The notes: a model not told the origin generated them from the letters alone. A stretch of DNA of 64,000 nt from an uncultured Albidiferax sp. (GCA_963512645.1 CAUPNM010000021.1:12123-76122); one strand, 5' to 3'; positions 7,769-54,227 are shown, numbered from the stretch's first letter. Program-made: numbers and translations.

Positions 7769-8752
7769 ATGGGCGAATTCGACCTGATCCGGCGCTACTT
7801 CACCCGCCCCACGCCGCGTGCCGTGCTGGGCGTGGGCGACGACTGCGCGCTGCTGCAGCCCCGGCCCGGCATGCAACTGGCCATCTCCAGCGACATGCTG
7901 GTCGAGGGCCGCCACTTCCTCAGCACCGTGCCGCCCGCCGCGCTGGGCCACAAGGCGCTGGCGGTCAACCTGAGCGACCTGGCCGCCTGCGGCGCGCAGC
8001 CGCTGGCCTTTACCCTGGCGCTGGCCCTGCCGCGTGCCGATGCCGCCTGGCTGGAGCCGTTCTCAAAGGGTCTGCTGGCCCTGGCCGATGCCCACGGCTG
8101 CGAACTGGTGGGTGGCGACACCACCCAGGGGCCTTTGAACATCTGCATCACCGTGTTCGGCGAAGTGCCTCCCGGCCAGGCGCTGCTGCGCTCAGGCGCA
8201 CAGGTGGGCGACGATCTGTATGTGAGCGGCACCTTGGGCGATGCGCGGCTGGCGCTAGAGGTGTTTCGCGGCACGCTGTCGCTGCCCGAAGCCGCCTTTG
8301 CCCAGGCCCGCGTCCGGTTGGAGCGGCCCACGCCCCGCGTGGCCCTGGGGATGGCGCTGCGCGGCGTGGCTACGGCGGCAGCCGATGTGAGCGACGGCCT
8401 GTGGGGCGACCTGGGCCACATCCTGCAGGCATCGGGCGTGGGTGCAGTGGTAGATGCCTCAATTGCTATTCAATTGCTAGCTGCTCGTGCTTATCTTATA
8501 AGCACGGAGGCCATATTTGATGCAGAACAGCTGCTGGACTATGTTTTGGCCGGTGGGGACGACTACGAGCTGGTATTCACCGCACCGCCCTCGGCCCGCC
8601 ATGCCGTAGCCGCCGCCGCCGCCCAGGCCGACACGCCGGTGACGCGCATCGGGCAGATCGAAACCCGCCCGGCCGACGGGGCCATCCGCCTGGTCGATGG
8701 CCAGGGCGCGCCGATATTGCGCAGCCTTAGCGCGTTCGACCACTTTGCCTGA
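7769..8752 (+). CDS. thiL: Thiamine-monophosphate kinase
   Basis: MGEFDLIRRYF, GVGDDCA, NLSDLAACGA, GGDTT and GGDDYEL motifs. Confidence 0.97.
   Translation: MGEFDLIRRYFTRPTPRAVLGVGDDCALLQPRPGMQLAISSDMLVEGRHFLSTVPPAALGHKALAVNLSDLAACGAQPLAFTLALALPRADAAWLEPFSKGLLALADAHGCELVGGDTTQGPLNICITVFGEVPPGQALLRSGAQVGDDLYVSGTLGDARLALEVFRGTLSLPEAAFAQARVRLERPTPRVALGMALRGVATAAADVSDGLWGDLGHILQASGVGAVVDASIAIQLLAARAYLISTEAIFDAEQLLDYVLAGGDDYELVFTAPPSARHAVAAAAAQADTPVTRIGQIETRPADGAIRLVDGQGAPILRSLSAFDHFA
8464..8523 (+). repeat. Dispersed ~60-bp palindromic repeat, copy in-frame in thiL
   Basis: GCTAT-TCAATTG-CTAGC-TGCTCGTGCTTAT-CTT-ATAAGCAC-GGAGGCC-ATATTTGATGC. Confidence 0.85.
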
Positions 8753-8812
8753 GCACGGGTGGCCGCAGATGGTTTTGGCTTTGGCATCAAGCTTGCGTAA
8801 ACTAAGCCCTCC

Positions 8813-9235
8813 ATGAATGAAGCCGACGCCATCCGCCAAATCCTGACACACGCCCGCACCATTGCGGTGGTGGGCCTGTCGCCCAACCCTGGCCGCCCCA
8901 GCCACCAGGTGGCGCGCAGCCTGCAGGCGCGCGGTTACCGCATCATCCCCATCAACCCGAACGCCAGCGAAATCCTGGGTGAAAGGGCCTACCCCAGCCT
9001 GACCGCAGCGGCCCAGGACCAGGTGATCGAGGTGGTGAACTGCTTTCGGCGCAGCAAGGAGATTCCGCCCCTCGTCGATGAAGCCCTGGCCATCAAGGCC
9101 AAGGCGGTGTGGATGCAGCTGGGCATCTCCCACGCCGCCGCCGCCCAAAAGGCCAAGATGGCCGGGCTGCGGGTCGTGCAAAACAAGTGCATCAAGACCG
9201 AGCACGCGGTGTTATCGGCCCGAGGTGTTATTTAA
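8813..9235 (+). CDS. CoA-binding protein (YccU-like)
   Basis: IAVVGLSPNPGRPS, GYRIIPINP, GE.AYPSL and VWMQLGI motifs. Confidence 0.9.
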   Translation: MNEADAIRQILTHARTIAVVGLSPNPGRPSHQVARSLQARGYRIIPINPNASEILGERAYPSLTAAAQDQVIEVVNCFRRSKEIPPLVDEALAIKAKAVWMQLGISHAAAAQKAKMAGLRVVQNKCIKTEHAVLSARGVI

Positions 9236-9293
9236 CGCCATTTAGGCCTCTCGCGCTTATTCCCTGGGCGTGAGCAGCTACTGAATATATAGC
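9236..9293 (-). repeat. Dispersed palindromic repeat, intergenic copy
   Basis: Reverse complement reads GCTAT-ATATTCA-GTAGC-TGCTCACGCCCAGGGAATAAGCGCGAGAGGCCTAAATGG. Confidence 0.85.
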
Positions 9294-9375
9294 GCCGGGA
9301 TAGAGATACGCCCAGGCCAAAGGTCGGTGCGGTAAGCTCCCCAGTTTGCCCACCCCTCGCACATCTCCCGCCGCC

Positions 9376-10464
9376 ATGTCCTTCGCCCCCCTCCAAAACG
9401 ACAGCTTTCTGCGCGCCTGCCTGCGCCAGTCCACCGACCACACGCCCGTGTGGCTGATGCGCCAGGCGGGCCGTTACCTGCCGGAGTACCTGGCCACGCG
9501 GGCCAAGGCGGGCAGCTTCATGGGCCTGGCCACCAACACCGACTACGCCACCGAAGTCACGCTGCAGCCGCTGGAGCGTTTCCCGCTGGACGCCGCGATT
9601 TTGTTCAGCGACATCCTCACCGTGCCCGATGCCATGGGCCTGGGCCTGAGCTTTGCGCAGGGCGAAGGCCCGCGCTTTGCCCACCCGGTGCGCGACGAGG
9701 CCGCCGTAGCCGCACTGGAAGTGCCCGACATGGACAAGCTGCGCTACGTGACCGATGCGGTCACCTCCATCCGCCGCGCGCTCAATGGCCGGGTGCCGCT
9801 GATCGGCTTCTCGGGCAGCCCCTGGACGCTGGCCTGCTACATGGTGGAGGGCAAGGGCTCGGACGACTACCGCCTGGTCAAAAGCATGCTGTACAGCCGC
9901 CCCGACCTGATGCACCGCATGCTGCAGGTGAATGCCGACGCGGTGGCCGCCTACCTGAATGCGCAAATCGAAGCGGGCGCGCAGGCAGTGATGATTTTTG
10001 ACAGCTGGGGCGGCGTGCTGGCCGACGGCGCGTTCCAGCAGTTCAGCCTGGCCTACACCCAACAGGTGCTCAAACAGCTCAAAACCGAGCACAACGGCCA
10101 ACGCATCCCGCGCCTGGTGTTCACCAAGGGCGGTGGCCTGTGGCTGGACGAAATGGCCGGCCTGGACTGCGAAGTACTGGGCCTGGACTGGACGGTCAAC
10201 CTGGCCAAGGCCCGCGCCCTGGTCGGCCATAGCAAGGCCTTGCAGGGCAATATCGACCCCAATGTGCTGTTTGCACCGCCCGCGCAGATTGCCACCGAGG
10301 TGGAGCGCGTGGTGAACAGCTTTGGCGTGCCGCACCAGGGCGCAGGCACCGGCCCCACGCACATCTTCAACCTGGGCCACGGCATCAGCCAGCACACGCC
10401 GCCGGAGCACGTGGCCGCGCTGGTAGAGGCGGTACACCGGGCTTCCCGGCAAATTCGGGCCTGA
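9376..10464 (+). CDS. hemE: Uroporphyrinogen decarboxylase
   Basis: [38 protein letters not shown] and HIFNLGHGI motifs. Confidence 0.98.
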
Positions 10465-10486
10465 AAACAGCGTTGGAATACACCAC

Positions 10487-10726
10487 TTATGCACAAAACT
10501 TGGGGTGCACTGTGGTAGGGCCCCACAGAGGCACCACCAACCGCTATGAAACCCATAGCGATCCTAAGTTGTTGATTTATATAGTCATCTGAAATTGCTT
10601 TTTTTAGAGGCAATCCGTCGAAAGCCTTGATTTATCGGGCTTTGCAGCCTGCCCCATGGAGATATCAACAAAGTTATCCACAGATTCTTTGGATACCTTT
10701 TAAATCAGTTGCAAATCAAGCACTTA
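10487..10726. promoter_or_regulatory. AT-rich intergenic cluster of DnaA boxes and IHF consensus sites
   Basis: TTATGCACA 10487-95; TTATCCACA 10674-82; inverted degenerate box TTTGGATAC 10688-96; WATCAA-N4-TTR matches at 10565-77 (reverse) and 10714-26. Confidence 0.6.
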
Positions 10727-10765
10727 GGCGCATTCCCTCCAGTTCACGTGAAATAACACACGCAC

Positions 10766-12865
10766 ATGCAGCACCGGCTCTCCGTCGCCGTCCAAACCCC
10801 CGCCCACAGCGCCATCGCCGGGCCACTCACCTACAGCCACAGCGCCGCCCTCCCCCCCGGCAGCCTGGTGCGGGTGCCGCTGGGCACGCGCGAGACACTG
10901 GGCGTGGTGTGGGACGGCACGCCGCCAGAGTCTGATTTCGAGGTGCGCCCCTTAAGCGCCGCGCTCGACGGCCTGCCGCCGCTCAACGCCGCCTGGCGCG
11001 GCCTGGTGCAATTTGCCGCCCTGTACTACCAGCGCGCGGTGGGCGAAGTCGCCCTGGCCGCCCTGCCCCCGCAACTGCGCGAACTGGGCGCGGCACAGCT
11101 CACCCGGCGGCTCAAGCGGCCCGCCAAAGGAGCCGATGCACAGGCCGAAGCCGCTATAGTTTCTGCAGCACTCAGCGCCGAACAAACAAGCGCCATTGCC
11201 ACTTTTGAGTCCCAAAATGGGCCGTTTTTGCTGTTTGGCTCCACCGGCAGCGGCAAGACCGAGGTGTATTTGCAACTGGTGCAGCGCCTCCTGGCCCGCG
11301 ACCCCACCGCCCAGGCCCTGGTGATGGTGCCCGAGATCAACCTCACGCCGCAGCTTGAAGCCCGCTTTCGCGAACGTTTCGAGCCCCGCTTTGGCGCGGC
11401 AGCGGTGGTGTCCATGCACAGCGGCATGACCGCCCCGCAGCGCCTGAAAAGCTGGCTGGCCGCCCACGGGGGCACGGCGCGCATCGTGCTGGGCACGCGC
11501 ATGGCGGTGTTTGCGTCCATGCCCCGGCTCAAGCTCATCGTGGTCGACGAAGAGCACGACCCCAGCTACAAGCAGCAAGAAGGCGCGCGCTACTCGGCCC
11601 GCGACCTGGCCGTGTACCGCAGCCAGCTCGAAACCCGCCTGTCCCCCGATACGGAGCCCTGCCGCGTGCTGCTCGGCTCGGCCACCCCGTCGCTGGAGAG
11701 CTGGCACCACAGCCGCCCCGCCGCCGAGGGCGGGCGCTACGTACGCCTGGCCATGCCCAGCCGCATCGGCGCGGGCGCACTGCCCAAGGTGCGGCTGGTG
11801 GATATGGGCTTGCAGCAAAAGAAAACCGTGTTCTCGCCCCAGCTGCTGGCCGCCATCCAGCAGCGCATAACACGCGGCGAGCAAAGCATGGTGTTTTTGA
11901 ACCGGCGCGGCTACGCCCCGGTGCTGGCCTGCGGCAGCTGCGAATGGAAAAGCGAATGCCCGCACTGCAGCGCCTACCGCGTGTTCCACAAGATCGACCG
12001 CAGCCTGCGCTGCCACCACTGCGGCTATGCCGAGCCCGTGCCCCGCGCCTGCCCCAGTTGCGGCAATCCCGACATCGCCCCCGTGGGCCGGGGCACCGAG
12101 CGGCTCGAAGAACACCTGGCCGAGCTGCTCGCCACCGTGCGCCGCCCCGACGGTGGCCCGGTGGTGGTGGCCCGCATCGATGCCGACAGCACCAAGGCCA
12201 AGGGCGCGCTAGAAGCCCAACTGGCCGAGGTGCATACCGGCGCAGTCGATGTGCTGGTGGGCACGCAGATGATCGCCAAGGGCCACGACTTTCGCCGCAT
12301 CACCCTGGTGGCCGCCATCCAGCCCGACGGCGCGCTGTTCTCCAGCGACTTCCGCGCGCCCGAGCGCCTGTTTGCCCTGCTGATGCAGGCGGGGGGCCGC
12401 GCAGGCCGCGATGCCGCCCACAGCGCGGCCAGCGAGATGTGGGTGCAAACCGCGCACCCGCAGCACCCGCTGTTTGCCGCACTGCGCCAGCACGACTACC
12501 CGGCGTTTGCCGCCAGCCAGCTCGACGAGCGCCGCATCGCCGGCATGCCACCGTTCAGCTTCCAGGCCCTGGTGCGCGCCGAGGCCCGCACGCAGGAGGC
12601 CGCCCAGGCCTTTTTAACGCTGGCCAGCGCCGCCGCCTGCGACGTGCCCGACGTAGACCGCGTCACCCTCTACCCCGCCGTGCCCATGGGCGTGCAGCGC
12701 GTGGCCAACATCGAACGCGCCCAGATGCTGGTGGAAAGCCCGTCCCGCCAGGCCCTGCAGCGCTTCCTGCTGGCCTGGCAAGCCGTGCTGCGCGCCACCC
12801 GCAGCCAGCCCGAGGCCAAGGGCTTGATCCGCTGGGCGATCGACGTGGATCCACTGGGAATCTGA
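10766..12865 (+). CDS. priA: Primosomal protein N' (replication-restart helicase)
   Basis: GSTGSGKTEVY, VPEINLTPQ, VDEEHD, four CxxC pairs, GTQMIAKGHDF and DVDP C-terminus. Confidence 0.98.
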   Translation: MQHRLSVAVQTPAHSAIAGPLTYSHSAALPPGSLVRVPLGTRETLGVVWDGTPPESDFEVRPLSAALDGLPPLNAAWRGLVQFAALYYQRAVGEVALAALPPQLRELGAAQLTRRLKRPAKGADAQAEAAIVSAALSAEQTSAIATFESQNGPFLLFGSTGSGKTEVYLQLVQRLLARDPTAQALVMVPEINLTPQLEARFRERFEPRFGAAAVVSMHSGMTAPQRLKSWLAAHGGTARIVLGTRMAVFASMPRLKLIVVDEEHDPSYKQQEGARYSARDLAVYRSQLETRLSPDTEPCRVLLGSATPSLESWHHSRPAAEGGRYVRLAMPSRIGAGALPKVRLVDMGLQQKKTVFSPQLLAAIQQRITRGEQSMVFLNRRGYAPVLACGSCEWKSECPHCSAYRVFHKIDRSLRCHHCGYAEPVPRACPSCGNPDIAPVGRGTERLEEHLAELLATVRRPDGGPVVVARIDADSTKAKGALEAQLAEVHTGAVDVLVGTQMIAKGHDFRRITLVAAIQPDGALFSSDFRAPERLFALLMQAGGRAGRDAAHSAASEMWVQTAHPQHPLFAALRQHDYPAFAASQLDERRIAGMPPFSFQALVRAEARTQEAAQAFLTLASAAACDVPDVDRVTLYPAVPMGVQRVANIERAQMLVESPSRQALQRFLLAWQAVLRATRSQPEAKGLIRWAIDVDPLGI
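11153..11218 (+). repeat. Degenerate repeat copy in-frame in priA
   Basis: GCTAT-AGTTTCT-GCAGC-ACTCAGCGCCGAACAAACAAGCGCCATTGCCACTTTTGAGTCCCAAAAT; same spacing as other copies, AT-rich codons in a GC-rich gene. Confidence 0.6.
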
Positions 12866-12880
12866 TGACAGGAGATAACA

Positions 12881-12902
12881 ATGCGCATACCATGCGCATA
12901 AT
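12881..12902 (+). promoter_or_regulatory. Putative CcdA operator / -10 element
   Basis: Palindrome ATGCGCAT twice (12881-88, 12892-99), 11 bp apart, overlapping CATAAT (12897-902), just upstream of ccdA. Confidence 0.6.
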
Positions 12903-12922
12903 CTCCATGCCCAGGACTTTGT

Positions 12923-13177
12923 ATGAACACCCTGACCGCCCCGCCTACCGGACGCAAGCGCCCCGTCAACCTCACGCTAAGTGAAGACCTGGTGCAGCAA
13001 GCCCGCGGTATGACCAGCAACCTGTCTGCCGTGGTGGAGACCCTGCTGTCAGGCTATGTGCAGGAGCATGCCCAGGCGCAGCAGGCGCGCCAGCAGCAGG
13101 CCACGCAAACCGCACAGGCCTGGAACGCGTTCAATGACGCGGCGGGCGCTTTTGCCGACGAACACTCCACGCTGTAA
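12923..13177 (+). CDS. ccdA: CcdA-family antitoxin
   Basis: RKRPVNLTLSEDLV..AR....NLS..VE.LL (ribbon-helix-helix-like N-terminus) and W..FN...G.FADEHSTL C-terminus. Confidence 0.88.
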   Translation: MNTLTAPPTGRKRPVNLTLSEDLVQQARGMTSNLSAVVETLLSGYVQEHAQAQQARQQQATQTAQAWNAFNDAAGAFADEHSTL

Positions 13178-13184
13178 ACAGGGC

Positions 13185-13511
13185 ATGGCTCAATTTGACG
13201 TACACCGCAACCTGGGTGCGCAGCGGGCCCAGATTCCCTTTGTGGTGGTAGTGCAATCGGCCCTGTTCGATACCTACCGCCGCCGGGTGGTGGTGCCCCT
13301 GGTGCGCAGCAACAGCCCCGGTGCCGCACAGATCAAGCCGTCCCGGCTCAACCCGGTTTTCAGCATCGAGGGCATCACCGTAGTGCTCCACCCCCTGGAG
13401 ATCGTTTCGGTGGCGGTGGACCAGTTGGGAGCCCGGGTGGGCGACCTGCAAGACCAGGGGGCCGCCATCGCCGATGCCCTGGACGAGGTGTTTACCCGCT
13501 CCTGGGGCTGA
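13185..13511 (+). CDS. ccdB: CcdB-family toxin
   Basis: MAQFDVHRN..., VVVQS.L......RVVVPL, RLNPVFSIEG and I.DALD motifs; 7 bp downstream of ccdA. Confidence 0.9.
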   Translation: MAQFDVHRNLGAQRAQIPFVVVVQSALFDTYRRRVVVPLVRSNSPGAAQIKPSRLNPVFSIEGITVVLHPLEIVSVAVDQLGARVGDLQDQGAAIADALDEVFTRSWG

Positions 13512-14106
13512 CATACCCCGCCTGCTGCCCCACAAACCCATCAAACGCCGCCAGCAAGGGTTGGAAGCGGTCTGCATCCCCCTCCAACTGCGCCAGCGCC
13601 GCACAGGTCGCCTCCAGCGTGGACAGCTGGTCGGGCAGATGCGCCTTGCGGATGCGGTAGTGCGAGGGCGGCAGGCCGCGCAGGGCCAGGCGGGGCAAGG
13701 CTTGCAGCGGCGGGCTGCTGTACAGCATCTTGCGGCTTTTGCGCCAGGTGCCGTCCAGCACCACCAGGCGCAGGCGCGACGGGTTTTGCAGCCATTCGGA
13801 CGGGAGTGGCGGTGGGGGCAACAGGTCGGGGGCCGTGTCCAAAGGCGTGTCGGGGTACAGCAGCAGCGTGTGTTTGCCGTCTACCGGCCAGACCGGTGTG
13901 GCAAACGCCTCGCCCACCACGATGCGGCTGTGCGGCAGGCTGAGGTGCAGCAGGCGGGCGCTGCCCTTGGCCTGGTGCTTTTCCAGCGGGTGCTGCAACA
14001 CCAGCACTTCCACCACGTGGGCTGTGGGGCGCACCCATTGGCAGATGCAGGTGCTGGATGGGCGCAGGCAGTGGCCACACACGGGGCGATGGGTGACGGA
14101 ATCCAT
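13492..14106 (-). CDS. DTW-domain protein (tRNA-uridine aminocarboxypropyltransferase family)
   Basis: N-terminal CxxC...CxC, LQHPLE, LLYP, LVVLDGTWRKSRKM, Y.IRKA and LSTLEA motifs. Confidence 0.9.
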   Translation of the reverse strand: MDSVTHRPVCGHCLRPSSTCICQWVRPTAHVVEVLVLQHPLEKHQAKGSARLLHLSLPHSRIVVGEAFATPVWPVDGKHTLLLYPDTPLDTAPDLLPPPPLPSEWLQNPSRLRLVVLDGTWRKSRKMLYSSPPLQALPRLALRGLPPSHYRIRKAHLPDQLSTLEATCAALAQLEGDADRFQPLLAAFDGFVGQQAGYVSPRSG

Positions 14107-14141
14107 GGGGCATTGTAGGAAGCGACTTCACACGCATCAGG

Positions 14142-14207
14142 TACTATGGTTTTGATAGCCGCCTACGCTCACCGAATAAGCACGGGCGGCCATTTTTATT
14201 CTAAAAA
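14142..14207 (+). repeat. Dispersed palindromic repeat, intergenic copy
   Basis: ACTAT-GGTTTTG-ATAGC-CGCCTACGCTCACCGAATAAGCACGGGCGGCCATTTTTATTCTAAAA. Confidence 0.75.
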
Positions 14208-14222
14208 TTTCGACACAGCGCC

Positions 14223-16880
14223 ATGACAACGCTCCTCCTCCGCATCTCGCTGCCCCTGGCTTTTGTGCTGGCCAGTTGCACCACAACCACCACCAAGGTG
14301 ACCCAGGCGGTCAACGAGGCCCAGGCCGCCGCCAACGTGGCCACCACGGCGGCCATCGTGGCGCAGTCGGCGGCCAGCGCACCGCGTGCGCCCGGCGCGC
14401 CCCCCTCGCCCCTGCCGCTGTTTGCCACCGTGCTGCAGGGCACGCAGCGCAGCATTGGGCTGTTTCCGGTGTACCAGCGCGACGAGCGTTTCTGGCTGGA
14501 GCTGGGGCCGGACGACTTTGGCAAGCCCTTCTTTTTGTCGCCCAAGATGGCCAACGGCATTGGCGAAGGCGGGCTGTTTGGCGGGCGCATGCTCAGCCCC
14601 CGGCTGGTGGAATTTCGCCGCGTGCACAACCTGGTGCAACTGGTGGCGCGCAACACCGACTTCGTGGCCCCGCCCGGCACGCCCGAGGCCCGGGCCGTGG
14701 CCGCCGCCTACGCCCCCAGCCTGCTGGGCAGCACCCCGGTGGCCAGCCAGCCGCACCCCAACCGCCAGAGCGTGCTGGTGGACGCGGGCGCGCTGTTCAT
14801 CAACGACATGGGCGGTGTGGCCCAGGCGCTGGCCCACACCTACCGGCAAAACTACGGCGTGGACATGCGCAACTCGGCCATCCTGAAGGTGCGCGGCACG
14901 CCCGACCTGCTGGTGCTGGAGGTGATGAACCACTACGCCACCGCAGGTATCGCCCTGCCCGCGCCCGGCAGCAGCCTGCCCGGTACGCCCCAGAACCTGG
15001 TGGACCCGCGCAGCATGTTCATCCAGATCCACTACTCGCTGGCCCGCCTGCCCGCGCAAACCATGGCCCCGCGCCTGGCCGACCCGCGCATCGGCCACTT
15101 TGTGGAGGCGGCAGACAACTTTGGCGACGACCTGGCCCCCACGGCACGGCAGCGCTTCATCGCCCGCTGGCGGTTGGAGAAGCAGGACCCGCTGGCCGAG
15201 CTGTCCGAGCCGGTCAAACCCATCACCTACTGGATCGACCGCAGCGTGCCGCTGAAATACCGCGAGGCCATCCGCGCGGGCATCCTGGCCTGGAACCCGG
15301 CGTTCGAACGCATTGGCTTCAAAGACGCGATCCGGGTGCAGCAGCAGGCAGACGATGCCGACTTCGACACCCTGGACTTTGGCCGCGCCTCGGTGCGCTG
15401 GTCTACCAACAACCGCACCGGCTTTGCCGCCATCGGCCCGCGCCACGTAGACCCGCGCAGCGGCGAGATCCTGGATGCCGACATCCGGATTGAGAGCCAA
15501 AGCGTGCGCGCCACCCGGGCTACCGCCGTGCGCCGCCTGGAATCCACCGCCGCAGAGGCCCATGGCGACTGCGACATCGGCGCAGAAGCGGGCGCGCAAC
15601 TGGCCTACGCGCTCGACCTGCTGGCCGCCCAGGGCGACCTGGTCCCTGACAGCCCCGAGGCCGAGCAGTTCGTGCGCGACTACATCACCAGCCTGACGGT
15701 GCACGAGGTGGGCCACACCCTGGGCCTACGGCACAACTTCCGCGCCTCGCGCCTCTTCACCCAGGCGCAGCTGGCCGACCCGGCCTTTACCCGGGCGCAG
15801 GGCCTGGGCGGCTCGGTGATGGACTACATGCCGGTCAACCTCGGCCTGCCCGGCCAGCCGCGCCCGGCGGCCTTCCAGACCACGCTGGGCCCCTACGACT
15901 ACTGGGCCATCGACTACGCCTACCGGCCCATCGCTCCCGCCGTGGAAGCCGCCACGCTGGCGCAGATTGCCAGCCGCAGCGCCGAGCCCGCCCTGGCCTA
16001 TGGCACCGACGAAGACTTCTACCTCGGAGCCGACCCCGAAACCCTGCAGCGCGACCTGGGCGGCGACCCGGTGGCCTTTGCCCGGCAGCGTTTCGCCATT
16101 GCCCACAACGTGTTCCAGCGGCTGGAGACCCAACAGCCCCCGCCCGACCAGGACTGGAGCCGTGTGCGCCGCCTGCTGCGCGAGTCGCTGAATGACGCGG
16201 GCTCGGCCATTGGCATCCTGCTGCGCCAGCTGGGCGGCGTGCGCATGCTGCGTGACTTTGCCAACACCGGGCGCGACCCGGCCCAGGCCACGCCCACCGC
16301 CGACCAGCGCGCCGCGCTCGACCTGCTGCTGCGCGAGGTGCTGGCCGCCGACCGCTTCAGTATCTCGCCCGCCTTGCAACGCCGCCTGGTGCCCGACTAC
16401 CTGGCCCGCGCCGAAGCCCCCGCCAGCGCCGGGGATCTGCCCCTGGCCCGCGAAGTATTTGGCCTGCGCCTGCTGGTGCTCAACAGCCTGATGGGCGACG
16501 CGCTGGCGGGCAAGCTGCTGGACAACGACAGCCGCCAGGCCCCCGGCACCGACGCACTGCGCCTGCCCGAGCTGGTGCAGCGTGTGCAGGCCGAAGTCTG
16601 GGCCGACCTGAGCGCACCCACCATCGCCCCTGGCCCCGAGCAGCGCGAGCTACAACACGCCTACACCGAGCGCCTGGCCGCCCTGGTGCTGCGCCCCGCC
16701 GGGGCCTCGCGTGCCGATGCCCGCAGCCTGGTGCGCGGCCAGGCCACGGCCCTGCTGGCGCGCATCAATGCCGCCCAGCAGCGGCGCGACCACAGCCCGC
16801 AAACCCGCCAGCACCTGGCCGATACCGCCCTGACCCTGCGCAACGCTTTGTCGGCCAAGCTGGTCCGGCCCAGCAGCTGA
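14223..16880 (+). CDS. Zinc-dependent metalloprotease lipoprotein (EcxA-like, DUF5117/DUF4953-type)
   Basis: Lipobox LAS-C; PR.ADPRIG.F; W..AFERIGF; VDPRSGEILDADI; metzincin HEVGHTLGLRHNF with Met-turn SVMDY. Confidence 0.88.
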   Translation: MTTLLLRISLPLAFVLASCTTTTTKVTQAVNEAQAAANVATTAAIVAQSAASAPRAPGAPPSPLPLFATVLQGTQRSIGLFPVYQRDERFWLELGPDDFGKPFFLSPKMANGIGEGGLFGGRMLSPRLVEFRRVHNLVQLVARNTDFVAPPGTPEARAVAAAYAPSLLGSTPVASQPHPNRQSVLVDAGALFINDMGGVAQALAHTYRQNYGVDMRNSAILKVRGTPDLLVLEVMNHYATAGIALPAPGSSLPGTPQNLVDPRSMFIQIHYSLARLPAQTMAPRLADPRIGHFVEAADNFGDDLAPTARQRFIARWRLEKQDPLAELSEPVKPITYWIDRSVPLKYREAIRAGILAWNPAFERIGFKDAIRVQQQADDADFDTLDFGRASVRWSTNNRTGFAAIGPRHVDPRSGEILDADIRIESQSVRATRATAVRRLESTAAEAHGDCDIGAEAGAQLAYALDLLAAQGDLVPDSPEAEQFVRDYITSLTVHEVGHTLGLRHNFRASRLFTQAQLADPAFTRAQGLGGSVMDYMPVNLGLPGQPRPAAFQTTLGPYDYWAIDYAYRPIAPAVEAATLAQIASRSAEPALAYGTDEDFYLGADPETLQRDLGGDPVAFARQRFAIAHNVFQRLETQQPPPDQDWSRVRRLLRESLNDAGSAIGILLRQLGGVRMLRDFANTGRDPAQATPTADQRAALDLLLREVLAADRFSISPALQRRLVPDYLARAEAPASAGDLPLAREVFGLRLLVLNSLMGDALAGKLLDNDSRQAPGTDALRLPELVQRVQAEVWADLSAPTIAPGPEQRELQHAYTERLAALVLRPAGASRADARSLVRGQATALLARINAAQQRRDHSPQTRQHLADTALTLRNALSAKLVRPSS

Positions 16881-16881
16881 T

Positions 16882-16945
16882 TGCTATTTAAAAAGTAGCT
16901 GCTTGCGCCCTATCCATGCGCGCAAACCGGCAAATCGCTGCATAA
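16882..16945 (+). repeat. Dispersed palindromic repeat, intergenic copy
   Basis: GCTAT-TTAAAAA-GTAGC-TGCTTGCGCCCTATCCATGCGCGCAAACCGGC. Confidence 0.8.
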
Positions 16946-16959
16946 GCCCCACGGGGACC

Positions 16960-18528
16960 TTATTTCGTCAGCCGGAACACCCGCACGCTCTCCGACACCG
17001 CCTCCGACTGCCCGTGCAGTGCGGTGGCGGCGGCGGCAATCTGCTCTACCAGGGCGGCGTTTTGCTGGGTGATGTTGTCCATCTGGGTGATGGCATCGTT
17101 CACCTGCGCAATGCCCTGCTGCTGCTCACTGGAGGCAGCGCTGATCTCGTTGACCAGCGAGGTCACTCGGCTCACCGATGCCAGGGCATCGCCCATGGTG
17201 ACCTGGGCGGCATCGGCCAGGCGGCTGCCGCTGTCTACCGTGGCGGCCGACTCGGAAATCAGGGTCTTGACCTCGCGCGCTGCCGAGGCCGTGCGCTGCG
17301 ACAGCGCCCGCACCTCGCTGGCCACCACGGCAAAGCCCCGGCCCTGCTCGCCCGCACGCGCGGCTTCCACGGCGGCGTTCAGGGCCAAAATATTCGTCTG
17401 GAAGGCGATGCTGTCGATCACCTGGATGATTTCGCCAATGCGTTGCGACGAGGCGCTGATCTCGCGCATGGTGCGGGTCACGTCCTGCACCGCTTCGCCG
17501 CCACGGCGGGTAACGGCATCGGCCTGCGCCGCCAGCTGGGCGGCCTGGATGGCGGAATCGGTGTTTTGCCGCACCGTGGCGGTGAGCTGCTCCATGGAGG
17601 CTGCCGTCTGCTCCAGGTTGCTGGCCTGGCTTTCGGTGCGCTGCGACAGGTCGTTGTTGCCCTGCGCAATCTCCTGGGTGGAGATGGACATGTTTTCCAC
17701 CCCGGTGCGCGCATCGCGCACGATGGAGAGCAGGTTGACGTTGAGCTGGTTCAGCGCGGCCGACAGGCTGCCCAGGGCGTCGGTGCCCCGGCTTTGCAGG
17801 CTCTGGGTCAGGTCACCGGCGGCCATGCGGTTGGAAAAAGCCACCAGGTCGAGCAGCGGATCGATCGCCAGGGTCTTCAGCAACCAGCCGCCCCCCAACG
17901 CGCAGACAAGCACGGTGGGCAGCGCCACCAGCGTCACCGTACCGGCCGATGCCCCGCCGATGGCCACCCCGGCGGCCACGCCCACCGCCGCCAGGCCTGC
18001 GGCGACCAGGGTGAATTTGCCCGCCAGCCCCAGCCTGAGCGCCGACACGGTGCGCCCTGCCAGGGTGTTGATGCGCACCTGGCCACCCTCCAGGCAGGTG
18101 ATGCGCTGGCCCTGGGCTTTTTCGGCGCGCATGCGGGCGTACAGCGCGGTGGCGGCATCGATGTCGGCACGCAGGGGTTCGGTGCGCACCGACATGTAGC
18201 CGGTGGGCTGGGTGCCCTCCATCAGCGGCGTGACGTTGGCCCGCACCCAGTAGTAGCTGCCGTCCTTGCGCCGGTTCTTCACCATGCCCGACCAGGGCCG
18301 CCCGCTCTGGATGGTGGCCCACATGTCGCGGTAGGCCTCTTCGGGCATGTCCGGGTGGCGGATCAGGTTGTGCGGCTGGCCCAGCAGCTCGTCGCGGCTG
18401 AAGCCACTGACCTCGATGAAGTACGGATTGCAGTACCGGATATGGCCCTGCAGATCGGTCGTGGAGACCAAGGTCTGCCCACTGGGAAACGGATATTCCT
18501 GGTTTAGTATGGGTTGGTTGTTGCGCAT
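16960..18528 (-). CDS. aer: Aer-like PAS-domain chemoreceptor
   Basis: MRNNQP...[14 protein letters not shown]...[36 protein letters not shown] signalling core [30 protein letters not shown]. Confidence 0.92.
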
Positions 18529-18576
18529 CAGAGTCCTCAACGGTTGTGGATCGACAAACAGAGTTCCAAAGTGGTG

Positions 18577-20178
18577 TTACGGCCCGCCCGGCACACGCGA
18601 GGGCGGCAAGCCCAGGCCAGCACCCGTAGGCAGTGTGAACACCGCCACCGAAGCCACCAGATCCTGCGCCTGGCTCTTCATGCTGCTGGCCGCCGCCGCC
18701 ATTTCTTCCACCAGGGCGGCGTTTTGCTGCGTGACGTGGTCGATCTGGGAGACGGCCTCCCCGATCTGCGACACGCCCGCGCTTTGTTCGTTGCTGGCGG
18801 CACTGATCTCGCCCACGATACCGGTGACCCGGCGGATGGCGGCCACCACTTCGGCCATGGTGATCCCGGCTTTGTCCACCAGCAGCGTGCCCTGGGCCAC
18901 GCGGTCCACGCTGGCATTGATGAGCTGCTTGATTTCCTTGGCCGCATCGGCGCTGCGCCCGGCCAGGGAGCGCACCTCGCTGGCCACCACCGCAAAGCCC
19001 CGGCCCTGCTCACCCGCGCGGGCGGCTTCCACCGCAGCGTTCAGCGCCAGGATAGTGGTTTGGAAGGCGATGCCGTCAATCACGCCGATGATGTCGGCGA
19101 TCTTCTTGGAACTTTCGTTGATGCCCTGCATGGTGCTCACCACTTCGGCCACCACCTCGCCGCCCTGCACCGCCACCGCACTGGCACGCTGGGCCAACTG
19201 GTTGGCCTGGATGGCGCTATCGGCGTTTTGCCGGACCGTGGCGCTGAGCTGCTCCATCGAGGCGGCAGTTTCTTCCAGCGCGCTGGCCTGCTGCTCGGTG
19301 CGGGCGCTCAGGTCGTGGTTGCCCTGGGCGATCTCAAAACTGGCGTTGGCCACACTTTCCGAGCCTAGGCGGACCTGGGTGACCAGCCGCACCAGGCTGG
19401 ACTGCATGCTCTGCAACTGGGCCATCAGGCTGCTGCTGTCCCCGGCGCGCAGGCGGATCTGCACCCCCAGGTTGCCAGCGGCCACGCCCTGCGCCAGGGC
19501 GGTGGCGGTGCGGGGCTCGGCCCCCAGTTGGCGCACGATGGAGCGGGTGATGAGCGCGCCGACCACGGCCGCCAGCACCACGCCGAACAGGCTAAATCCG
19601 ATCAGCAGCGTGCGCGCCTGGTGGTAGTCGTGCATCGCCGCGTCGTAGTCCCGGTCGTTGTTTTCCTGCTGGAGGTGGATGTTCTCGGCGATCGCCTCTT
19701 GCCACAGCGTTGTGGCCGGGCCGGCCTGTTTGAGCAGCAGCGCGGTGGCATCGGCGGGTTGACCGGCCAGGCCCAGCGCCAGGACCTGGTTGTTCAGCGC
19801 GCGGGCGGTCTGGGCGGCCTGGGCAATCTTGTCGCCCTGGGCTTTGCCGGTGTCGCTGGAAGGAAAGGCCCCCAGCGCGGCCCAGGCCTTGTCATAGGTA
19901 TCGCGCGCCTCGGAGATCTTGCGCATCTCGCTTTCTTTGGCCGCCGGGTCGTCCAGCAGCGCAATGGTGCGGATGACGCGGGAGACGATGTGCACGTCCT
20001 GCGACAAGGTGGTGTTGAGCGCAATCTTGGCGTTGTTGACCTTGACCACATCCTCCAGGTCCGCCGCCACCGCCGCCAGCTTGTACAAGGCCAAACCCGC
20101 CGACAGCAGCGACAGCAGCAGCACCAGACCAAAACCAACGTTCAGTCGCGTGCTAACTTTCAAGTCGGAAAGCTGCAT
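18577..20178 (-). CDS. Methyl-accepting chemotaxis protein with four-helix-bundle sensor domain
   Basis: Two TM helices flanking a periplasmic domain, then the MCP signalling domain ([26 protein letters not shown]). Confidence 0.93.
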
Positions 20179-20352
20179 GGAAAGCGTCCTTTCAAAGGGG
20201 GCAGAGGCCGTCCGCAAAGACATTGCGGCACGGGCTCAGCCTGCCAATCCTTCGCGATACGTAACCGATAGTAACTAGTTTGTACGCAACATTGGCCACA
20301 CTGTGGGGTCTTTTTTACACCGGTTTCCTCGCTTTGCGCAAGCCGCCCAACA

Positions 20353-20416
20353 GCTATATAAAAAATAGCTGGTTACGCCCATTCCACAAGCGCTAAAGGC
20401 ATAAAAAGCACTTAAT
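20353..20416 (+). repeat. Dispersed palindromic repeat, intergenic copy
   Basis: GCTAT-ATAAAAA-ATAGC-TGGTTACGCCCATTCCACAAGCGCTAAAGGCATAAAAAG. Confidence 0.82.
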
Positions 20417-20538
20417 CCATGGGGCAGCACCCGGGCCCCAGGCACCCCAGAAAGGGCGGCTCCCTACGGCGGCTGTGGCTGGCAACAAGCGGTAGGAGAT
20501 GGGCGCGCAGCCCTGAGCCAGGGCTGTACCCATATAGC

Positions 20539-20600
20539 GCTATGTAAAATATAGCTGCTTGCGCTTATGGAATAAGCGCTGGCGACCTAAAAGACTTAAA
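20539..20600 (+). repeat. Dispersed palindromic repeat, best-conserved copy
   Basis: GCTAT-GTAAAAT-ATAGC-TGCTTGCGCTTAT-GGA-ATAAGCGC-TGGCGACCTAAAAG. Confidence 0.88.
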
Positions 20601-20629
20601 AGGCTTGAATAAATCGCCTGTAGATGGGC

Positions 20630-37474: not shown

Positions 37475-38845
37475 ATGCACATTCATATTTTGGGTATTTG
37501 CGGCACCTTCATGGGAGGTTTGGCCGCTTTGGCGCGGGAGGCTGGGCACCGGGTGACGGGCTGCGACGCGGGGGTCTACCCCCCCATGAGCGACCAGTTG
37601 CGCGCACTGGACATTGGGCTGATCGAGGGCTTCTCGGCCGACCAGTTGGCGCTGGAGCCCGACATGTTCGTGGTCGGCAACGTGGTGTCGCGTGCCCGCA
37701 CGGCTGACGGCAACCCCAAATTTCCGTTGATGGAAGCCATTCTGGACGCGGGCCTGCCCTACACCAGCGGGCCGCAGTGGCTGGCCGAGCACGTGTTGCA
37801 AGGCCGCCATGTGCTGGCGGTGGCGGGCACCCACGGCAAAACCACCACCACGGCAATGCTGGCCTGGGTGCTGGAGCACGCGGGTCTGCAGCCGGGCTTT
37901 CTGGTCGGTGGTGTGCCGCTGAATTTCGGGGTGTCGGCCCGTTTGGGTGCAGGCAAGACCTTTGTGATCGAGGCCGACGAATACGACACCGCCTTCTTCG
38001 ACAAGCGCAGCAAGTTTGTGCACTACCGTCCGCGCACGGCAGTGTTGAACAACCTAGAATTCGACCACGCCGATATTTTTGACGACCTGCCCGCCATCGA
38101 GCGCCAGTTCCACCACCTGCTGCGCACCGTGCCCAGCACCGGCCGGGTGGTGACCAACGGGCTGGAAGAAAGCCTGGCCCGGGTGCTGCACCAGGGCTGC
38201 TGGAGCGAGGTGCGCAGCTTTGGCGCTGCGGTGAGCGACTTCACCGCCCAGGGCGAACCCCACCACTTCGATGTGCTGCAACACGGCAAACCAGTGGCCA
38301 CGGTGGAATGGGCGTTGGGCGGCGTGCACAACCAGCTCAATGCGCTGGCCGCCATTGCCGCCGCCGACCACGTAGGCGTGCCCGCCGACGTGGCGGCAAG
38401 GGCGCTGGGCGCTTTCCAAAATGTGAAGCGCCGCATGGAAGTGGTCGGAAACGTGCGCGGCATGACCGTGTACGACGACTTTGCCCACCATCCCACCGCC
38501 ATCCGTACCACGGTGGACGGCCTGCGCCGCCGGATCGGGCCGGGCCAGCGTATCCTGGCCGTGTTTGAGCCGCGCAGCAACACCATGAAGCTGGGGGCGA
38601 TGAAGGCCCAGTTGCCGTGGAGCCTGGAAGATGCCGACCTGGCGTTTTGCCACAGTGGCGGCCTGGGTTGGGATGCCCGCAGCGCCCTGGAACCCATGGG
38701 CGACCGGGCCCAGGTGGCCGACACGGTGGATGCGCTGGTGGCGCAGGTGGTGGCAGCAGCCCAGCCGGGCGACCACATCCTGTGCATGAGCAACGGTGGG
38801 TTCGGCGGCATCCACGCCAAACTGCTAAGCGCACTACAAAATTAA
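37475..38845 (+). CDS. mpl: Murein peptide ligase
   Basis: MHIHILGICGTFMGGLA, GTHGKTTT, EADEYDTAFFDKRSKF and DDFAHHPTAI motifs. Confidence 0.98.
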   Translation: MHIHILGICGTFMGGLAALAREAGHRVTGCDAGVYPPMSDQLRALDIGLIEGFSADQLALEPDMFVVGNVVSRARTADGNPKFPLMEAILDAGLPYTSGPQWLAEHVLQGRHVLAVAGTHGKTTTTAMLAWVLEHAGLQPGFLVGGVPLNFGVSARLGAGKTFVIEADEYDTAFFDKRSKFVHYRPRTAVLNNLEFDHADIFDDLPAIERQFHHLLRTVPSTGRVVTNGLEESLARVLHQGCWSEVRSFGAAVSDFTAQGEPHHFDVLQHGKPVATVEWALGGVHNQLNALAAIAAADHVGVPADVAARALGAFQNVKRRMEVVGNVRGMTVYDDFAHHPTAIRTTVDGLRRRIGPGQRILAVFEPRSNTMKLGAMKAQLPWSLEDADLAFCHSGGLGWDARSALEPMGDRAQVADTVDALVAQVVAAAQPGDHILCMSNGGFGGIHAKLLSALQN

Positions 38846-38895
38846 TAGCTGCTCGTGCTTATGGAATAAGCGCCAGAGGCACTTTTTACCCTTAA
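38832..38895 (+). repeat. Repeat copy overlapping the mpl stop codon
   Basis: ACTAC-AAAATTA-ATAGC-TGCTCGTGCTTAT-GGA-ATAAGCGC-CAGAGGCACTTTTTA; the mpl TAA lies inside the first palindrome. Confidence 0.87.
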
Positions 38896-38917
38896 CTTCC
38901 AAATACGCCCGAGATGG

Positions 38918-41115: not shown

Positions 41116-41167
41116 GGGTTGCTCCTGTGGGTTTTATAAAAGAAGGGAATCAAACAAAAAGGGGACG

Positions 41168-41205: not shown

Positions 41206-41238
41206 CATGAAGGGCTTGCTTGTCTACAACTTAGCCTC

Positions 41239-49826: not shown

Positions 49827-49848
49827 CCCGCGATTATCGCGGCTGCGG

Positions 49849-51405: not shown

Positions 51406-51517
51406 GGAGCTTTGTAGTTAATCTGTCGGGACTCGCGTCTCCCAATGGGGGCTATCGTAGAGGCTCGGCCCACCGCATCCCAGCGGTGGGTGCATGCGGT
51501 TTTGATAGCATCTTCGC

Positions 51518-52132
51518 ATGCTTGCGCCCCATTTTGCTACCCATCTGCTATATCTACACGGCTTTCGCTCGTCGCCGCAATCGGCCAAGGCCCGGCAGGT
51601 AGCTGCGCGGGTGCAGGCCCAGCACCCCGATGTGACATGGTGGTGTCCACAACTTCCACCGTCACCCCAGGCTGCCATCGATCTGCTGCGCCAAGGCATA
51701 ACCGACTGGCCGTGGGAGACGATGGCGGTGGTCGGCTCCTCGCTAGGCGGTTTTTACGCCACCTGGGTGGCCGAGCACACCGGCTGCAAGGCCGTGCTGC
51801 TAAACCCTGCGGTCCACCCGGCGCGGGACCTGGCCCGGTACATTGGCGAGCAAACCAGTTGGCAAAACCCGCAGGAACGCTTTTTTTTCGAGCCGTCCTT
51901 TGTCGACGAGCTGCAGGCCCTGACCCTGCACAACCAGCCCCCGCCCGAGCGCTACCGGGTTTTGATCGCCAAGGGCGACGAGGTACTGGACTGGCGCGAG
52001 ATGGCGGCCCGCTATGCCAGCGCCCAGCCCACGCTCTTGGAGGGCGGTGACCATGCGCTGAGCGACTTTGACGCGCATATCGACGGCGTGTTTCGTTTTC
52101 TCAACCTCTTGCCTGGCCCATCGCCCAAATAA
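51518..52132 (+). CDS. YqiA-family esterase
   Basis: LYLHGFRSSP.S.KA, GSSLGG, LLNPAV, GDEVLD and GGDHAL motifs. Confidence 0.93.
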   Translation: MLAPHFATHLLYLHGFRSSPQSAKARQVAARVQAQHPDVTWWCPQLPPSPQAAIDLLRQGITDWPWETMAVVGSSLGGFYATWVAEHTGCKAVLLNPAVHPARDLARYIGEQTSWQNPQERFFFEPSFVDELQALTLHNQPPPERYRVLIAKGDEVLDWREMAARYASAQPTLLEGGDHALSDFDAHIDGVFRFLNLLPGPSPK

Positions 52133-52163
52133 ACAGGCCACGGCGCATGGGAGAATTCAGCCC

Positions 52164-54227
52164 ATGTTTGCATTATTTGAAGAAGCCGGAAAATTCATGG
52201 CCGGACGCATCTTGTCCGAAGCGGAGTCGTCCGCGCAGGTCGAGCTCGACAGTGGCAAGCGGGTCAAGGTCAAGGCCGCCAACCTGTTGCTGAAGTTCGA
52301 CAAGCCCACGCCCGCCATCCTGTTGCAGGGCGCGCAACTCGTCGCCGCCGACATCGAGCTGGAGATGGCCTGGGAGTTCGCCCCCGAGGACGACTTTGGC
52401 TTTGCCGACCTGGCGCGTGACTATTTCAGCCTTAACGCCACGCTGGAGCAGCAAACCGCCATGCTGCTGCGCCTGTTTGACGCGCCCCATTACTTCCGCC
52501 GCGCGGGCAAGGGCCGGTTTCGCAAGGCATCCGCCGAGATCCTGCAACTGGCGCTGGCCGCCATCGAGAAAAAGCAGCAACTTGCTATACAAATTGCGGC
52601 CTGGGCGGAGGAGCTAAGCCAGGGCTCGTGCCCACCGGCTGTGCGTGAGCAGCTATACAAAATACTGTTTAAACCCGATAAAAACGGCCCTGAATACAAG
52701 GCCGTGGTCGAGGCCTCGCGCGCCACCCACAAGGCCCCGCTGGTGCTGCTGCAGCACGCTGGGGCCATCGACTCGCCCTACCAGTTCCACTGGCGGCGGT
52801 TTTTGCTGGAGAACTTTCCCAAAGGCACGGGTTTCCCGAACTTGGACGCGCCACAGATCGTGGACGACCTGCCGCTGTCGACCGCACAGGCGTTTTCCAT
52901 CGACGATTCGCAAACCACCGAGATCGACGATGCGCTGTCGGTGCAAGGCCTGGGCACGGGCACGGTCACGCTGGGCATCCACATTGCCGCGCCCGGCCTG
53001 GCCATCGCCCCCGGTAGCGCCATCGACCAGCTGGGCCGCGCCCGCCTGTCCACCGTCTACATGCCCGGCTACAAGCTGACCATGCTGCCCGACGCAGTGG
53101 TGCAAAACTACACCTTGCAAGAGGGCCGCAACTGCCCCGCCGTGTCGCTGTATGCCACGCTGGATGAGGCCACGCTAGAGATCACCGCCACCGAGACGAA
53201 GCTGGAGCGGGTGCACATTGCCGCCAATCTGCGCCATGACCAGCTCGATACCCTGGTGACCGCCGAGTGGCTGGAGAACCCGGATTTTGAGCATGAAATT
53301 GGCACCCAGCGCTTATCCATTGAGCGGGAGCAGCTATCATTTTTATATAAACTGGCGAAGCATCTGAAAGCCCAGCGCGAAGTGGTGCGCGGCAAGCCCG
53401 AGAACTTCAACCGGCCCGACTACAACTTCAAGCTGCTCGGCAAGACCGCCGACGAGCCGGTGGGCGACGAGCAAGTGCAAATCACCACCCGCCAGCGCGG
53501 TGCCCCTCTGGACCTGATGGTGGCTGAGGCCATGATCCTGGCCAACAGCACCTGGGGCAACTGGATGGCCGAGAACGGCGTGCCCGGCATCTACCGCAGC
53601 CAGGCCAGCCTGCTGCCGGGCGTGAAGGTGCGCATGGGCACCAAGGCGCTGCCCCACGCGGGCATCGGGGTCAAAAGCTACGCCTGGAGCACCTCGCCCC
53701 TGCGCCGCTACACCGACCTGGTCAACCAGTGGCAAATCATCGCCTGCGCCCGGCACGGCAAAACCGCCGCCCTGGCCGCGCCGTTCAAGCCCAAGGATGC
53801 CGATCTGTTCTCCATCATCTCGATGTTTGACGCGGCCTACGCCACCTACAACGGCTACCAGGGCGCGATGGAGCGCTTCTGGACGCTGAAGTACCTGCAG
53901 CAAAACGGCATCACCGAGATCATCGGCAGCATCTTCAAGGACGGCATGGTCCGCGCGGATGATTTGCCGCTGGTGCTGCCGGTGCTGGGCGATGCGCCGC
54001 GCGGTGCCAAGGTGCGGGTCAAGTTGGGCGACATCGACGAGATCACGCTGGATGTGCACGGCACCGTGGTCGAGCGGCTGGACACGCCGGTCGAAGTGGC
54101 ATCTGAGGCAACCGCCGAAGAAGCAGAAGACGACGAGGACGACACCGCCGCCGGGCCGATTGCCATCGCCGTCGATATGGACGAGCCCGAAGCGGCGGCC
54201 GCATCCACCGTCGAACCCGCACCGTGA
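52164..54227 (+). CDS. RNB-domain exoribonuclease (RNase II family)
   Basis: FSIDDSQTTEIDDALS, TVY.PG.K..MLP, EAMILAN and TSPLRRYTDLVNQ motifs. Confidence 0.93.
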   Translation: MFALFEEAGKFMAGRILSEAESSAQVELDSGKRVKVKAANLLLKFDKPTPAILLQGAQLVAADIELEMAWEFAPEDDFGFADLARDYFSLNATLEQQTAMLLRLFDAPHYFRRAGKGRFRKASAEILQLALAAIEKKQQLAIQIAAWAEELSQGSCPPAVREQLYKILFKPDKNGPEYKAVVEASRATHKAPLVLLQHAGAIDSPYQFHWRRFLLENFPKGTGFPNLDAPQIVDDLPLSTAQAFSIDDSQTTEIDDALSVQGLGTGTVTLGIHIAAPGLAIAPGSAIDQLGRARLSTVYMPGYKLTMLPDAVVQNYTLQEGRNCPAVSLYATLDEATLEITATETKLERVHIAANLRHDQLDTLVTAEWLENPDFEHEIGTQRLSIEREQLSFLYKLAKHLKAQREVVRGKPENFNRPDYNFKLLGKTADEPVGDEQVQITTRQRGAPLDLMVAEAMILANSTWGNWMAENGVPGIYRSQASLLPGVKVRMGTKALPHAGIGVKSYAWSTSPLRRYTDLVNQWQIIACARHGKTAALAAPFKPKDADLFSIISMFDAAYATYNGYQGAMERFWTLKYLQQNGITEIIGSIFKDGMVRADDLPLVLPVLGDAPRGAKVRVKLGDIDEITLDVHGTVVERLDTPVEVASEATAEEAEDDEDDTAAGPIAIAVDMDEPEAAAASTVEPAP
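53284..53348 (-). repeat. Repeat copy in-frame in the RNB gene, antisense to the gene
   Basis: Reverse complement TATAT-AAAAATG-ATAGC-TGCTCCCGCTCAAT-GGA-TAAGCGCTGGGTGCCAATTTCATGCTCAAAAT. Confidence 0.82.

Follow-up and report, generated by a model that had tools for sequence, protein, structure and literature searches.

A dispersed DNA motif of about 65 bp in the Comamonadaceae, located between and within genes and putatively read by a lineage-specific DNA-binding factor

Several described systems of dispersed bacterial DNA sequences come close to the motif reported here. The systems of repetitive extragenic palindromic (REP) elements, REPINs and REP-associated tyrosine transposases (RAYT), known from Enterobacteria, Pseudomonas and, as SMAG, from Stenotrophomonas, likewise comprise short dispersed imperfect palindromes with an adjoining (G/A)TAG, in hundreds of copies per genome, with species-specific variants, long persistence at their sites and enrichment downstream of genes. 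The uptake signal sequences (USS) of Pasteurellaceae and the DNA uptake sequences (DUS) of Neisseriaceae are likewise overlaid on coding sequence, free of indels, in permissive reading frames and without preferred orientation, and occur family-wide with lineage variants at positions conserved between species. The Rickettsia palindromic elements (RPE) likewise lie in protein genes, in either orientation, and keep the reading frame open. The sites parS, SBS (bound by SlmA), NBS (bound by Noc) and matS are likewise selected DNA motifs that also occur in genes through codon choice; they measure 12-16 bp, number tens of sites and are read by a dimeric protein. In Comamonadaceae genomes the BRE, which is GC-rich, 75-91 bp long (..GCCCCCTCGGGGGGCAGCAAGC..) and often arranged in tandem, occurs mostly between and sometimes within open reading frames (ORFs) (Hot et al. 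2011, PMC3110155). The motif considered here was found in a stretch of 64,000 nucleotides from an uncultured Albidiferax sp. (GCA_963512645.1 CAUPNM010000021.1:12123-76122; hereafter the window; high-GC, ~64%), where an original prediction made from the sequence had listed ten copies of a double-palindrome repeat and suggested a REP/MITE-like element. Judged from sequence comparison, it is most likely a site for a putative lineage-specific DNA-binding factor. The explanation put forward, with some reserve, is that of a DNA-level signal, maintained (and within genes also generated) by substitutions owing to selection or to a transmission or conversion drive, and read by a putative factor that co-evolves with its variable centre.

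The BRE is the only repeat found described for these genomes in the literature searched, and it was rejected as a name for the motif, as the published BRE sequences share nothing with the motif consensus. Searches of the same literature for core words of the motif, and for these genera in combination with RAYT or REPIN, returned nothing relevant, so that within the limits of that search the family is regarded as undescribed.

The ten listed copies were aligned, and each was scored with an nhmmer profile built from the other nine (leave-one-out). The pattern GCTAT-N7-RTAGCTGCT-N3-GC was scanned against one genome per species, with at least 120 matching stretches, and the profile was iterated over these loci to give a family model, comprising 206 distinct copies from many genomes. 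Reversed sequences served as decoys for the family model and the Infernal sequence model R1 as an independent check. Among the loci fetched (numbered L001 onwards), L001 and L003 are the thiL neighbourhoods of Comamonadaceae bacterium OS-1 and Rhodoferax sp. WC2427, whose ThiL proteins are 92% and 91% identical, respectively, to that of the window; more distant thiL loci are L005 (ThiL labelled Rhodoferax ferrireducens), L006 (Polaromonas) and L007 (Variovorax). Gene order around thiL is kept among the relatives' loci. Contigs of the same species (L328-L331) came from metagenomes. Gene calls in the fetched loci rest on the G+C content of third codon positions (GC3).

The dispersed family is real, its motif occurring far beyond chance. 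The first palindrome, GCTAT-N7-ATAGC, has 3 exact matches in the window versus 0.01 expected; when up to 2 mismatches are allowed, 3 matches to the second palindrome are found, again versus 0.01 expected. Eight of the ten listed copies (8464+, 9293-, 14142+, 16882+, 20353+, 20539+, 38832+ and 53348-) were recovered by leave-one-out scoring with E-values of 1.8e-13 to 6.4e-6. Iteration of the profile yielded the 206 copies, and the reversed decoys peak at 7.9 bits. Copies within the window are ~60-80% alike. A ninth copy, 42433, scored E=0.64 in the leave-one-out test; with the family model it reaches 29.5 bits (E=3e-7), above the decoys, and with Infernal R1 33.9 bits, and it is therefore a genuine but diverged member. 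The tenth, in priA (11153..11223, plus strand), is not supported as a member in the window, with a leave-one-out E-value of 0.59 and a family-model score of 9.5 bits (E=1.0) from its 3' half only; the orthologous priA site in L001 (L001:13384) scores 25.4 bits, so that the window site may be a decayed copy. The lone first palindrome that had been mentioned as a possible further copy (10543..10559, no strand) matches the exact pattern, yet it is no family member, being matched neither by nhmmer at E<=10 nor by Infernal at E<=1. In the same spacer between hemE and priA (10543-10620), ~55 nt past this palindrome, a sequence ..TTTTTTTAGAGGCAAT resembles the 3' block of the motif and could belong to a disrupted copy that is scored by no model. 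A weak partial match (14.4 bits, E=0.003) at 52628-52663 on the minus strand, in the 5' part of the RNB-domain gene treated below, is either a decayed copy or a chance match.

The motif is ~65 bp long with roughly 30 informative positions, and its consensus over the 206 copies reads tTGCTAT / t.AtTta / RTAGCTGCTtGCGC / 11 variable nt / GSGCTRSAGSC / c.aTTTgaC..aAAA. The spacer of seven nucleotides in the first palindrome had been described as fixed in length, and it is free of gaps in 206 of 206 copies. The best-conserved block is RTAGCTGCT.GCGC, about half of the copies having been picked by a pattern in which blocks A and B are fixed. The RTAG directly 5' of the second palindrome begins with A in 133 copies and with G in 69, its T, A and G being nearly invariant; it resembles the GTAG of REP elements. 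Two details of the design as originally described have to be revised: TTAT-N3-ATAA is no general feature, merely a local variant of the 11-nt variable centre, and RGAGGC, although present, belongs to the degenerate block GSGCTRSAGSC, which is followed by ATTTGA...AAAA. Both "palindromes" exist at the level of the consensus only. Terminal inverted repeats and target-site duplications were not seen around the copies, as had been noted before, and sequence beyond the blocks is unconserved.

Among the pattern-scan matches listed, nearly all are from Comamonadaceae, including Polaromonas, Rhodoferax, Acidovorax, Simplicispira, Curvibacter, Alicycliphilus, Xenophilus, Giesbergeria and Aalborgicola. 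A further 1.02 Mb of metagenome DNA from relatives, picked out by the RNase II-like gene and not by the repeat, gave 89 matches, i.e. ~1 per 11 kb, ranging from 0.6 to 1.7 per 10 kb with the GC content of the locus. The window holds 9 copies in 64 kb, and across the family one copy is met every 7-11 kb or so. By extrapolation, the 4.8-5.1 Mb genomes of relatives would hold ~400-700 copies, in agreement with the hundreds per genome foreseen earlier; these totals are inferred and not counted. No copies were found in the window between 20.6 and 38.8 kb, a region of housekeeping genes (nrdAB, accBC, prmA), nor at 58459-63400, where a standard tRNA cluster is followed by tuf, a tRNA gene and secE-nusG-rplK-rplA. 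The excess of plus-strand copies observed in the window (8:2) is absent from the family as a whole (206 copies): copies between co-directional genes are sense in 35 and antisense in 39 cases, copies inside genes are sense in 14 and antisense in 16 cases, and a replichore bias was sought with the result that orientation is unrelated to local GC skew. In the IMG/VR database the pattern matches at least 119 predicted viral contigs; ~12 of 80 examined (L209-L288) hold a full-length copy, which may represent Comamonadaceae prophages or host fragments, and most pattern matches there are due to chance.

Thirty of the 206 copies (~15%) lie inside ORFs with coding signal on both sides, and the copies in thiL, tldD, aroE and a gene for an RNB-domain (RNase II-like) protein were checked against orthologues. 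Host protein length is kept in every gene-internal case that could be checked, with differences of 0-7 residues. In the window, a full copy in thiL (8457..8532, plus strand, sense; 41.8 bits, leave-one-out E=8e-11) encodes SIAIQLLAARAYLISTEAIFDAE; a diverged copy in tldD (42425..42490, plus strand, antisense to the gene; 29.5 bits, Infernal 33.9) encodes TVRSISAAAQNRRAKVATQKVA; and a full copy in the RNB-domain gene (53278..53348, minus strand, antisense; 41.2 bits) encodes NPDFEHEIGTQRLSIEREQLSFLYK. ThiL has 324-334 aa in all 120 relatives, the loop in question exceeding that of solved ThiL structures by 7 residues, and TldD differs across the site by 2 aa (+2) from that of E. coli. Among 80 orthologues of the RNB protein, most agree in length irrespective of the motif, some being off by a few residues. 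Most AroE orthologues are likewise equal in length, whether the motif is present or absent: in many relatives (L132/L165:13453, L166, L187, L174, L195, L170, L152) a sense-strand copy encoding ..ALLQKTELLAQDLRGL..NFD precedes the conserved FDxxINAT, and aroE of the window (55157-55984) has the length of the motif-bearing genes and no copy. An in-frame insertion of the Rickettsia RPE type is rejected on account of this conservation of host protein length.

The copies within genes are spelled by codon choice. GC3 inside the footprint versus the rest of the gene is 0.22 versus 0.86 in thiL (p = 1e-11), 0.33 versus 0.83 in tldD (p = 9e-8) and 0.48 versus 0.85 in the RNB gene (p = 2e-5). In tldD, the peptide AKVATQKVAK of the window is encoded by GCG AAA GTA GCT ACA CAA AAA GTA GCA AAA, and AKVATQKIAK of the closest relative (L128) by GCC AAG GTG GCG ACG CAG AAG ATC GCG AAG; in the RNB gene, QLSFLYK of the window is encoded by CAG CTA TCA TTT TTA TAT AAA, and QLSFLYR of L128 by CAA CTC TCC TTC CTG TAC CGC. 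In aroE, too, the motif is spelled through the choice of codons. From Rhodoferax to Variovorax, thiL keeps ATT GCT AT. ... TTA ATA GC., including the rare codons TTA, ATA, GCT and ATT, which argues for a long-term constraint on the nucleotides. The segment of the host protein over the variable centre is hypervariable. A sense copy in the same loop of the RNB gene in L180 comes with only ~6 extra residues, and its 3' block coincides with the native codons for W-A-G-E-L. That copies neutral in length are spelled with A/T-ending codons points to selection or drive acting on the DNA itself. That a signal of ~65 bp overrides codon usage in essential genes and dictates hypervariable loops in ThiL, TldD, the RNase II-like protein and AroE, having been written by selection or drive and not by transposition, is possible, if rather doubtful when taken in full.

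The chromosomal sites of the copies are conserved. Besides the copy in thiL, three intergenic copies of the window occupy orthologous sites in L001 and L003: one on the minus strand between the gene for a coenzyme A (CoA)-binding protein and hemE (URO-D), neighbours assigned by Pfam (9224..9296; 49.2 bits), and two on the plus strand, between a DTW-domain gene and a divergent DUF5117/Met-zincin gene (14136..14214; 39.9 bits) and between this gene and a convergent gene for a methyl-accepting chemotaxis protein (MCP) with a PAS domain (16872..16947; 39.0 bits). Two further plus-strand copies form a direct pair spaced 186 bp apart between the MCP gene and ffh, the first at 20348..20420 (40.6 bits; kept in L328-L331) and the second by the 3' end of ffh at 20533..20603 (44.4 bits), the latter with a perfect GCGCTTAT-GGA-ATAAGCGC centre; both are kept in the metagenome contigs of the same species. 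The remaining copy (38834..38900, plus strand; 43.8 bits) overlaps a Mur-ligase gene at its stop codon, and the genes on either side of it converge (neighbour assigned by Pfam). Among the same-species contigs and the relatives with 91-92% ThiL identity, no polymorphism for presence or absence was observed, save for one site downstream of priA, where L003 and L005 hold a copy and the window and L001 hold a ccdA/ccdB toxin-antitoxin module (12900-13511 in the window, with a Pfam match of CcdB). This spot was considered as an empty site and rejected as such, being taken by the module in both genomes.

The variable centre evolves in concert within each genome. Identity of the central 11 nt is 0.50 between different sites of one genome versus 0.32 between genomes, a difference reached by 0 of 5000 permutations. 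Examples of genome-specific centres are ..GAATAA GCGC in the window, AGRTAC.. in L005 and GGAGC...GATT GG in L180, and gene-internal copies have the centre typical of the genome they belong to, as seen for thiL when the window is compared with L005. At the DUF5117/MCP site (16882) the central 11 nt of L001 are wholly different from those of the window or L003.

Taken together, a signal in the DNA itself would account for these observations as follows. The motif may be cis-acting DNA, old within the family Comamonadaceae and inherited vertically, composed of blocks at fixed spacing (TGCTAT, the 7-nt A/T-rich spacer, RTAGCTGCT.GCGC, the 11-nt variable centre, GSGCTRSAGSC and ATTTGA..AAAA, counted as four blocks) and acting as double-stranded or transiently single-stranded DNA. 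Its putative reader would be a lineage-specific, trans-acting DNA-binding factor, for which the 5-7-5 palindrome would suit a dimer, the flanking blocks adding contacts. Purifying selection or biased transmission would hold the copies at fixed chromosomal positions, and where intergenic space is not used, the motif would be built into permissive gene loops by synonymous and loop substitutions and not by transposition. The shift of the variable centre in concert per genome may reflect co-evolution with the factor or conversion between copies. Candidates for its role are the organisation of the nucleoid or chromosome and a signal of self-DNA, and any gain to the cell would lie there. Use by a nucleoid protein had been among the original suggestions; the evidence favours a reading by some DNA-binding protein, the factor itself remaining putative. 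Several points weigh against this account. A length of ~65 bp is long for a single protein, and the binding factor is hypothetical and the function inferred. For about half of the copies the apparent conservation is inflated, because they were picked with blocks A and B fixed. The consensus, an imperfect palindrome preceded by RTAG, also recalls REP elements; intergenic copies lie more often between convergent gene pairs (41) than between divergent ones (25), as with selfish repeats; and the similarity of centres within a genome could reflect copying instead of co-evolution.

These last points are shared by the explanation that comes next, in which the motif is a REP- or MITE-like selfish element (MITE, miniature inverted-repeat transposable element), mobilised in trans now or formerly by a RAYT/IS200-type HUH transposase, its copies being kept alike by that enzyme or through gene conversion and being tolerated chiefly downstream of genes. 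For the family as a whole this explanation is unlikely, and a REP-RAYT or MITE origin of the intergenic copies is possible. It is favoured by the dispersed imperfect palindrome, with a conserved RTAG adjoining the second palindrome on its 5' side, by the hundreds of copies per genome expected from extrapolation, by the convergent excess, by the genome-specific centres with their wholesale difference at 16882 between the window and L001, and by the direct pair 186 bp apart; in such a setting, however, gene-internal copies should add ~22 residues, whereas they add 0-7 and are made by codon choice. What a true insertion looks like can be seen in the same RNB gene, where the unrelated BRE (core CCCC..SGGGGGGCAGC) lies in-frame in several orthologues (L146:2886-2902, L148:2553-2569, also L195) and is a genuine selfish insertion adding about 25-28 residues (..GPPQG..AP.GGS..; ~27 aa in L146 and L148). 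Outside segmental duplications, no full-length copies were seen that are nearly identical. Five near-identical truncated copies without the left half-site in L152:1-5200, a candidate for recent mobility, were rejected because larger segmental duplications (units of 258-300 nt or larger) account for them. No inverted REPIN-like pairs were seen. A tblastn search with RayT of E. coli gave no match in 2 Mb of fetched loci, a result that is uninformative for this question. The features by which MITEs are recognised (terminal inverted repeats, target-site duplication, insertion polymorphism) were not found, apart from the site replaced by ccdAB, and with 30 of 206 copies inside ORFs the location is not extragenic in the sense of REP elements. 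Occupied orthologous sites and recoded, length-neutral gene copies argue against ongoing MITE or REP transposition, and with the strand bias absent as well, the mobile element originally proposed is not upheld by these tests.

A DNA-level signal could also be of the uptake type, with a bias in DNA uptake or recombination driving the motif in by point substitutions, genes included. Length-neutral gene copies in permissive frames and loops, neutral orientation, positions conserved between species and a family-wide distribution with genome-specific variants speak for such a signal, and are hallmarks of USS and DUS; the behaviour of the gene-internal copies is well accounted for. Yet this explanation is clearly improbable: the motif has ~65 bp with ~30 informative positions against USS/DUS cores of 9-12 bp, its density is ~1 per 10 kb against ~1 per kb, and ~12 of 80 IMG/VR pattern matches are full-length copies, although these may be host fragments. 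To our knowledge, sequence-specific uptake has not been reported in Comamonadaceae.

Regarding RNA, compensatory changes between orthologous copies seemed visible by eye, and a hairpin of RNA or single-stranded DNA was considered and rejected after four independent tests gave no excess of pairing. In the first palindrome the inner T/C varies independently of the A/G opposite, C-A being common, so that pairing is broken and not compensated; in the second the 5' arm is invariant and the 3' arm degenerate (G or C at three positions). At the four apical positions 1.65 of 4 are paired versus 1.76 of 4 with permuted partners; native folds have -11.0 kcal/mol versus -10.5 kcal/mol when 3' halves are swapped between genomes (p=0.14); and 70.8% of cells are paired versus 70.4% in shuffles, 113 of 500 shuffles reaching the observed value. 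In helix 2, 61% of cells are paired, the consensus being an imperfect palindrome. RNAalifold returned a consensus energy of 0 and no structure, Rfam had no match at the copies at the gathering threshold or at E<=10, and none of the copies overlaps a consensus resembling a promoter or terminator. Folding with RNA parameters favours the plus over the minus strand (-11.0 versus -8.9 kcal/mol, p=1e-20), which is a property of the consensus, through G-T pairs, and not of individual copies. Although this asymmetry, a mean z of -1.5 versus shuffles and a T-run after some copies would suit a small RNA gene, a terminator or an mRNA-stabilising hairpin, a structured RNA is very improbable given the lack of covariation, of an RNAalifold structure and of Rfam matches, together with an orientation independent of the flanking or host gene. 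The earlier view that a protein site fits better than an RNA hairpin gains from these results, with a spacer fixed in length and variable in sequence and a first palindrome free of covariation.

Metatranscriptome data of the organism consist of contigs only, in which, as in metagenome contigs, the core 20551-20582 (32 bp) is multicopy in wastewater communities, with nothing strand-specific. Near-identical DNA to positions 14000-21000 of the window occurs in many metagenome runs from wastewater, freshwater, soil and seawater, which indicates that the organism is a widespread environmental Rhodoferax-like species. Between a TonB-like gene and aroE, at 55090-55130, the window contains a short tandem repeat, GAATCCACC, of about four units.

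If the motif is a DNA signal under selection, the Comamonadaceae, which are abundant in freshwater, wastewater and soil, would hold a chromosome-wide recognition system with several hundred sites and a putative conserved reader protein; no uptake-signal-like or chromosome-organiser-site system would have been described in the family before. The motif would then maintain rare codons ending in A or T in housekeeping genes whose GC3 is otherwise ~0.85 and shape protein loops, a rare example of a DNA-level constraint overlapping protein coding beyond the classic USS/DUS and parS. In practice it may serve as a multicopy, family-specific marker, its conserved core drawing many metagenome contigs from different copies, and it offers an explanation for local anomalies of codon usage otherwise open to misreading as horizontal transfer.

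Compared with the systems named at the outset, the motif is a dispersed bacterial repeat set apart by its overlay on coding sequence. Unlike REP elements and REPINs, it has 15% of its copies in genes without change of length, no inverted doublets, no RAYT linked to it so far and a stem without sign of selection, and carries an upstream 5-7-5 palindrome with an A/T-rich spacer. It differs from the USS and DUS in being longer by a factor of five and rarer by a factor of ten. The RPE, as true insertions, lengthen their host proteins by tens of residues, whereas the proteins hosting the motif differ by 0-7 residues. Unlike parS, SBS, NBS and matS, it is composed of several blocks over ~65 bp, with a variable centre and several hundred sites.

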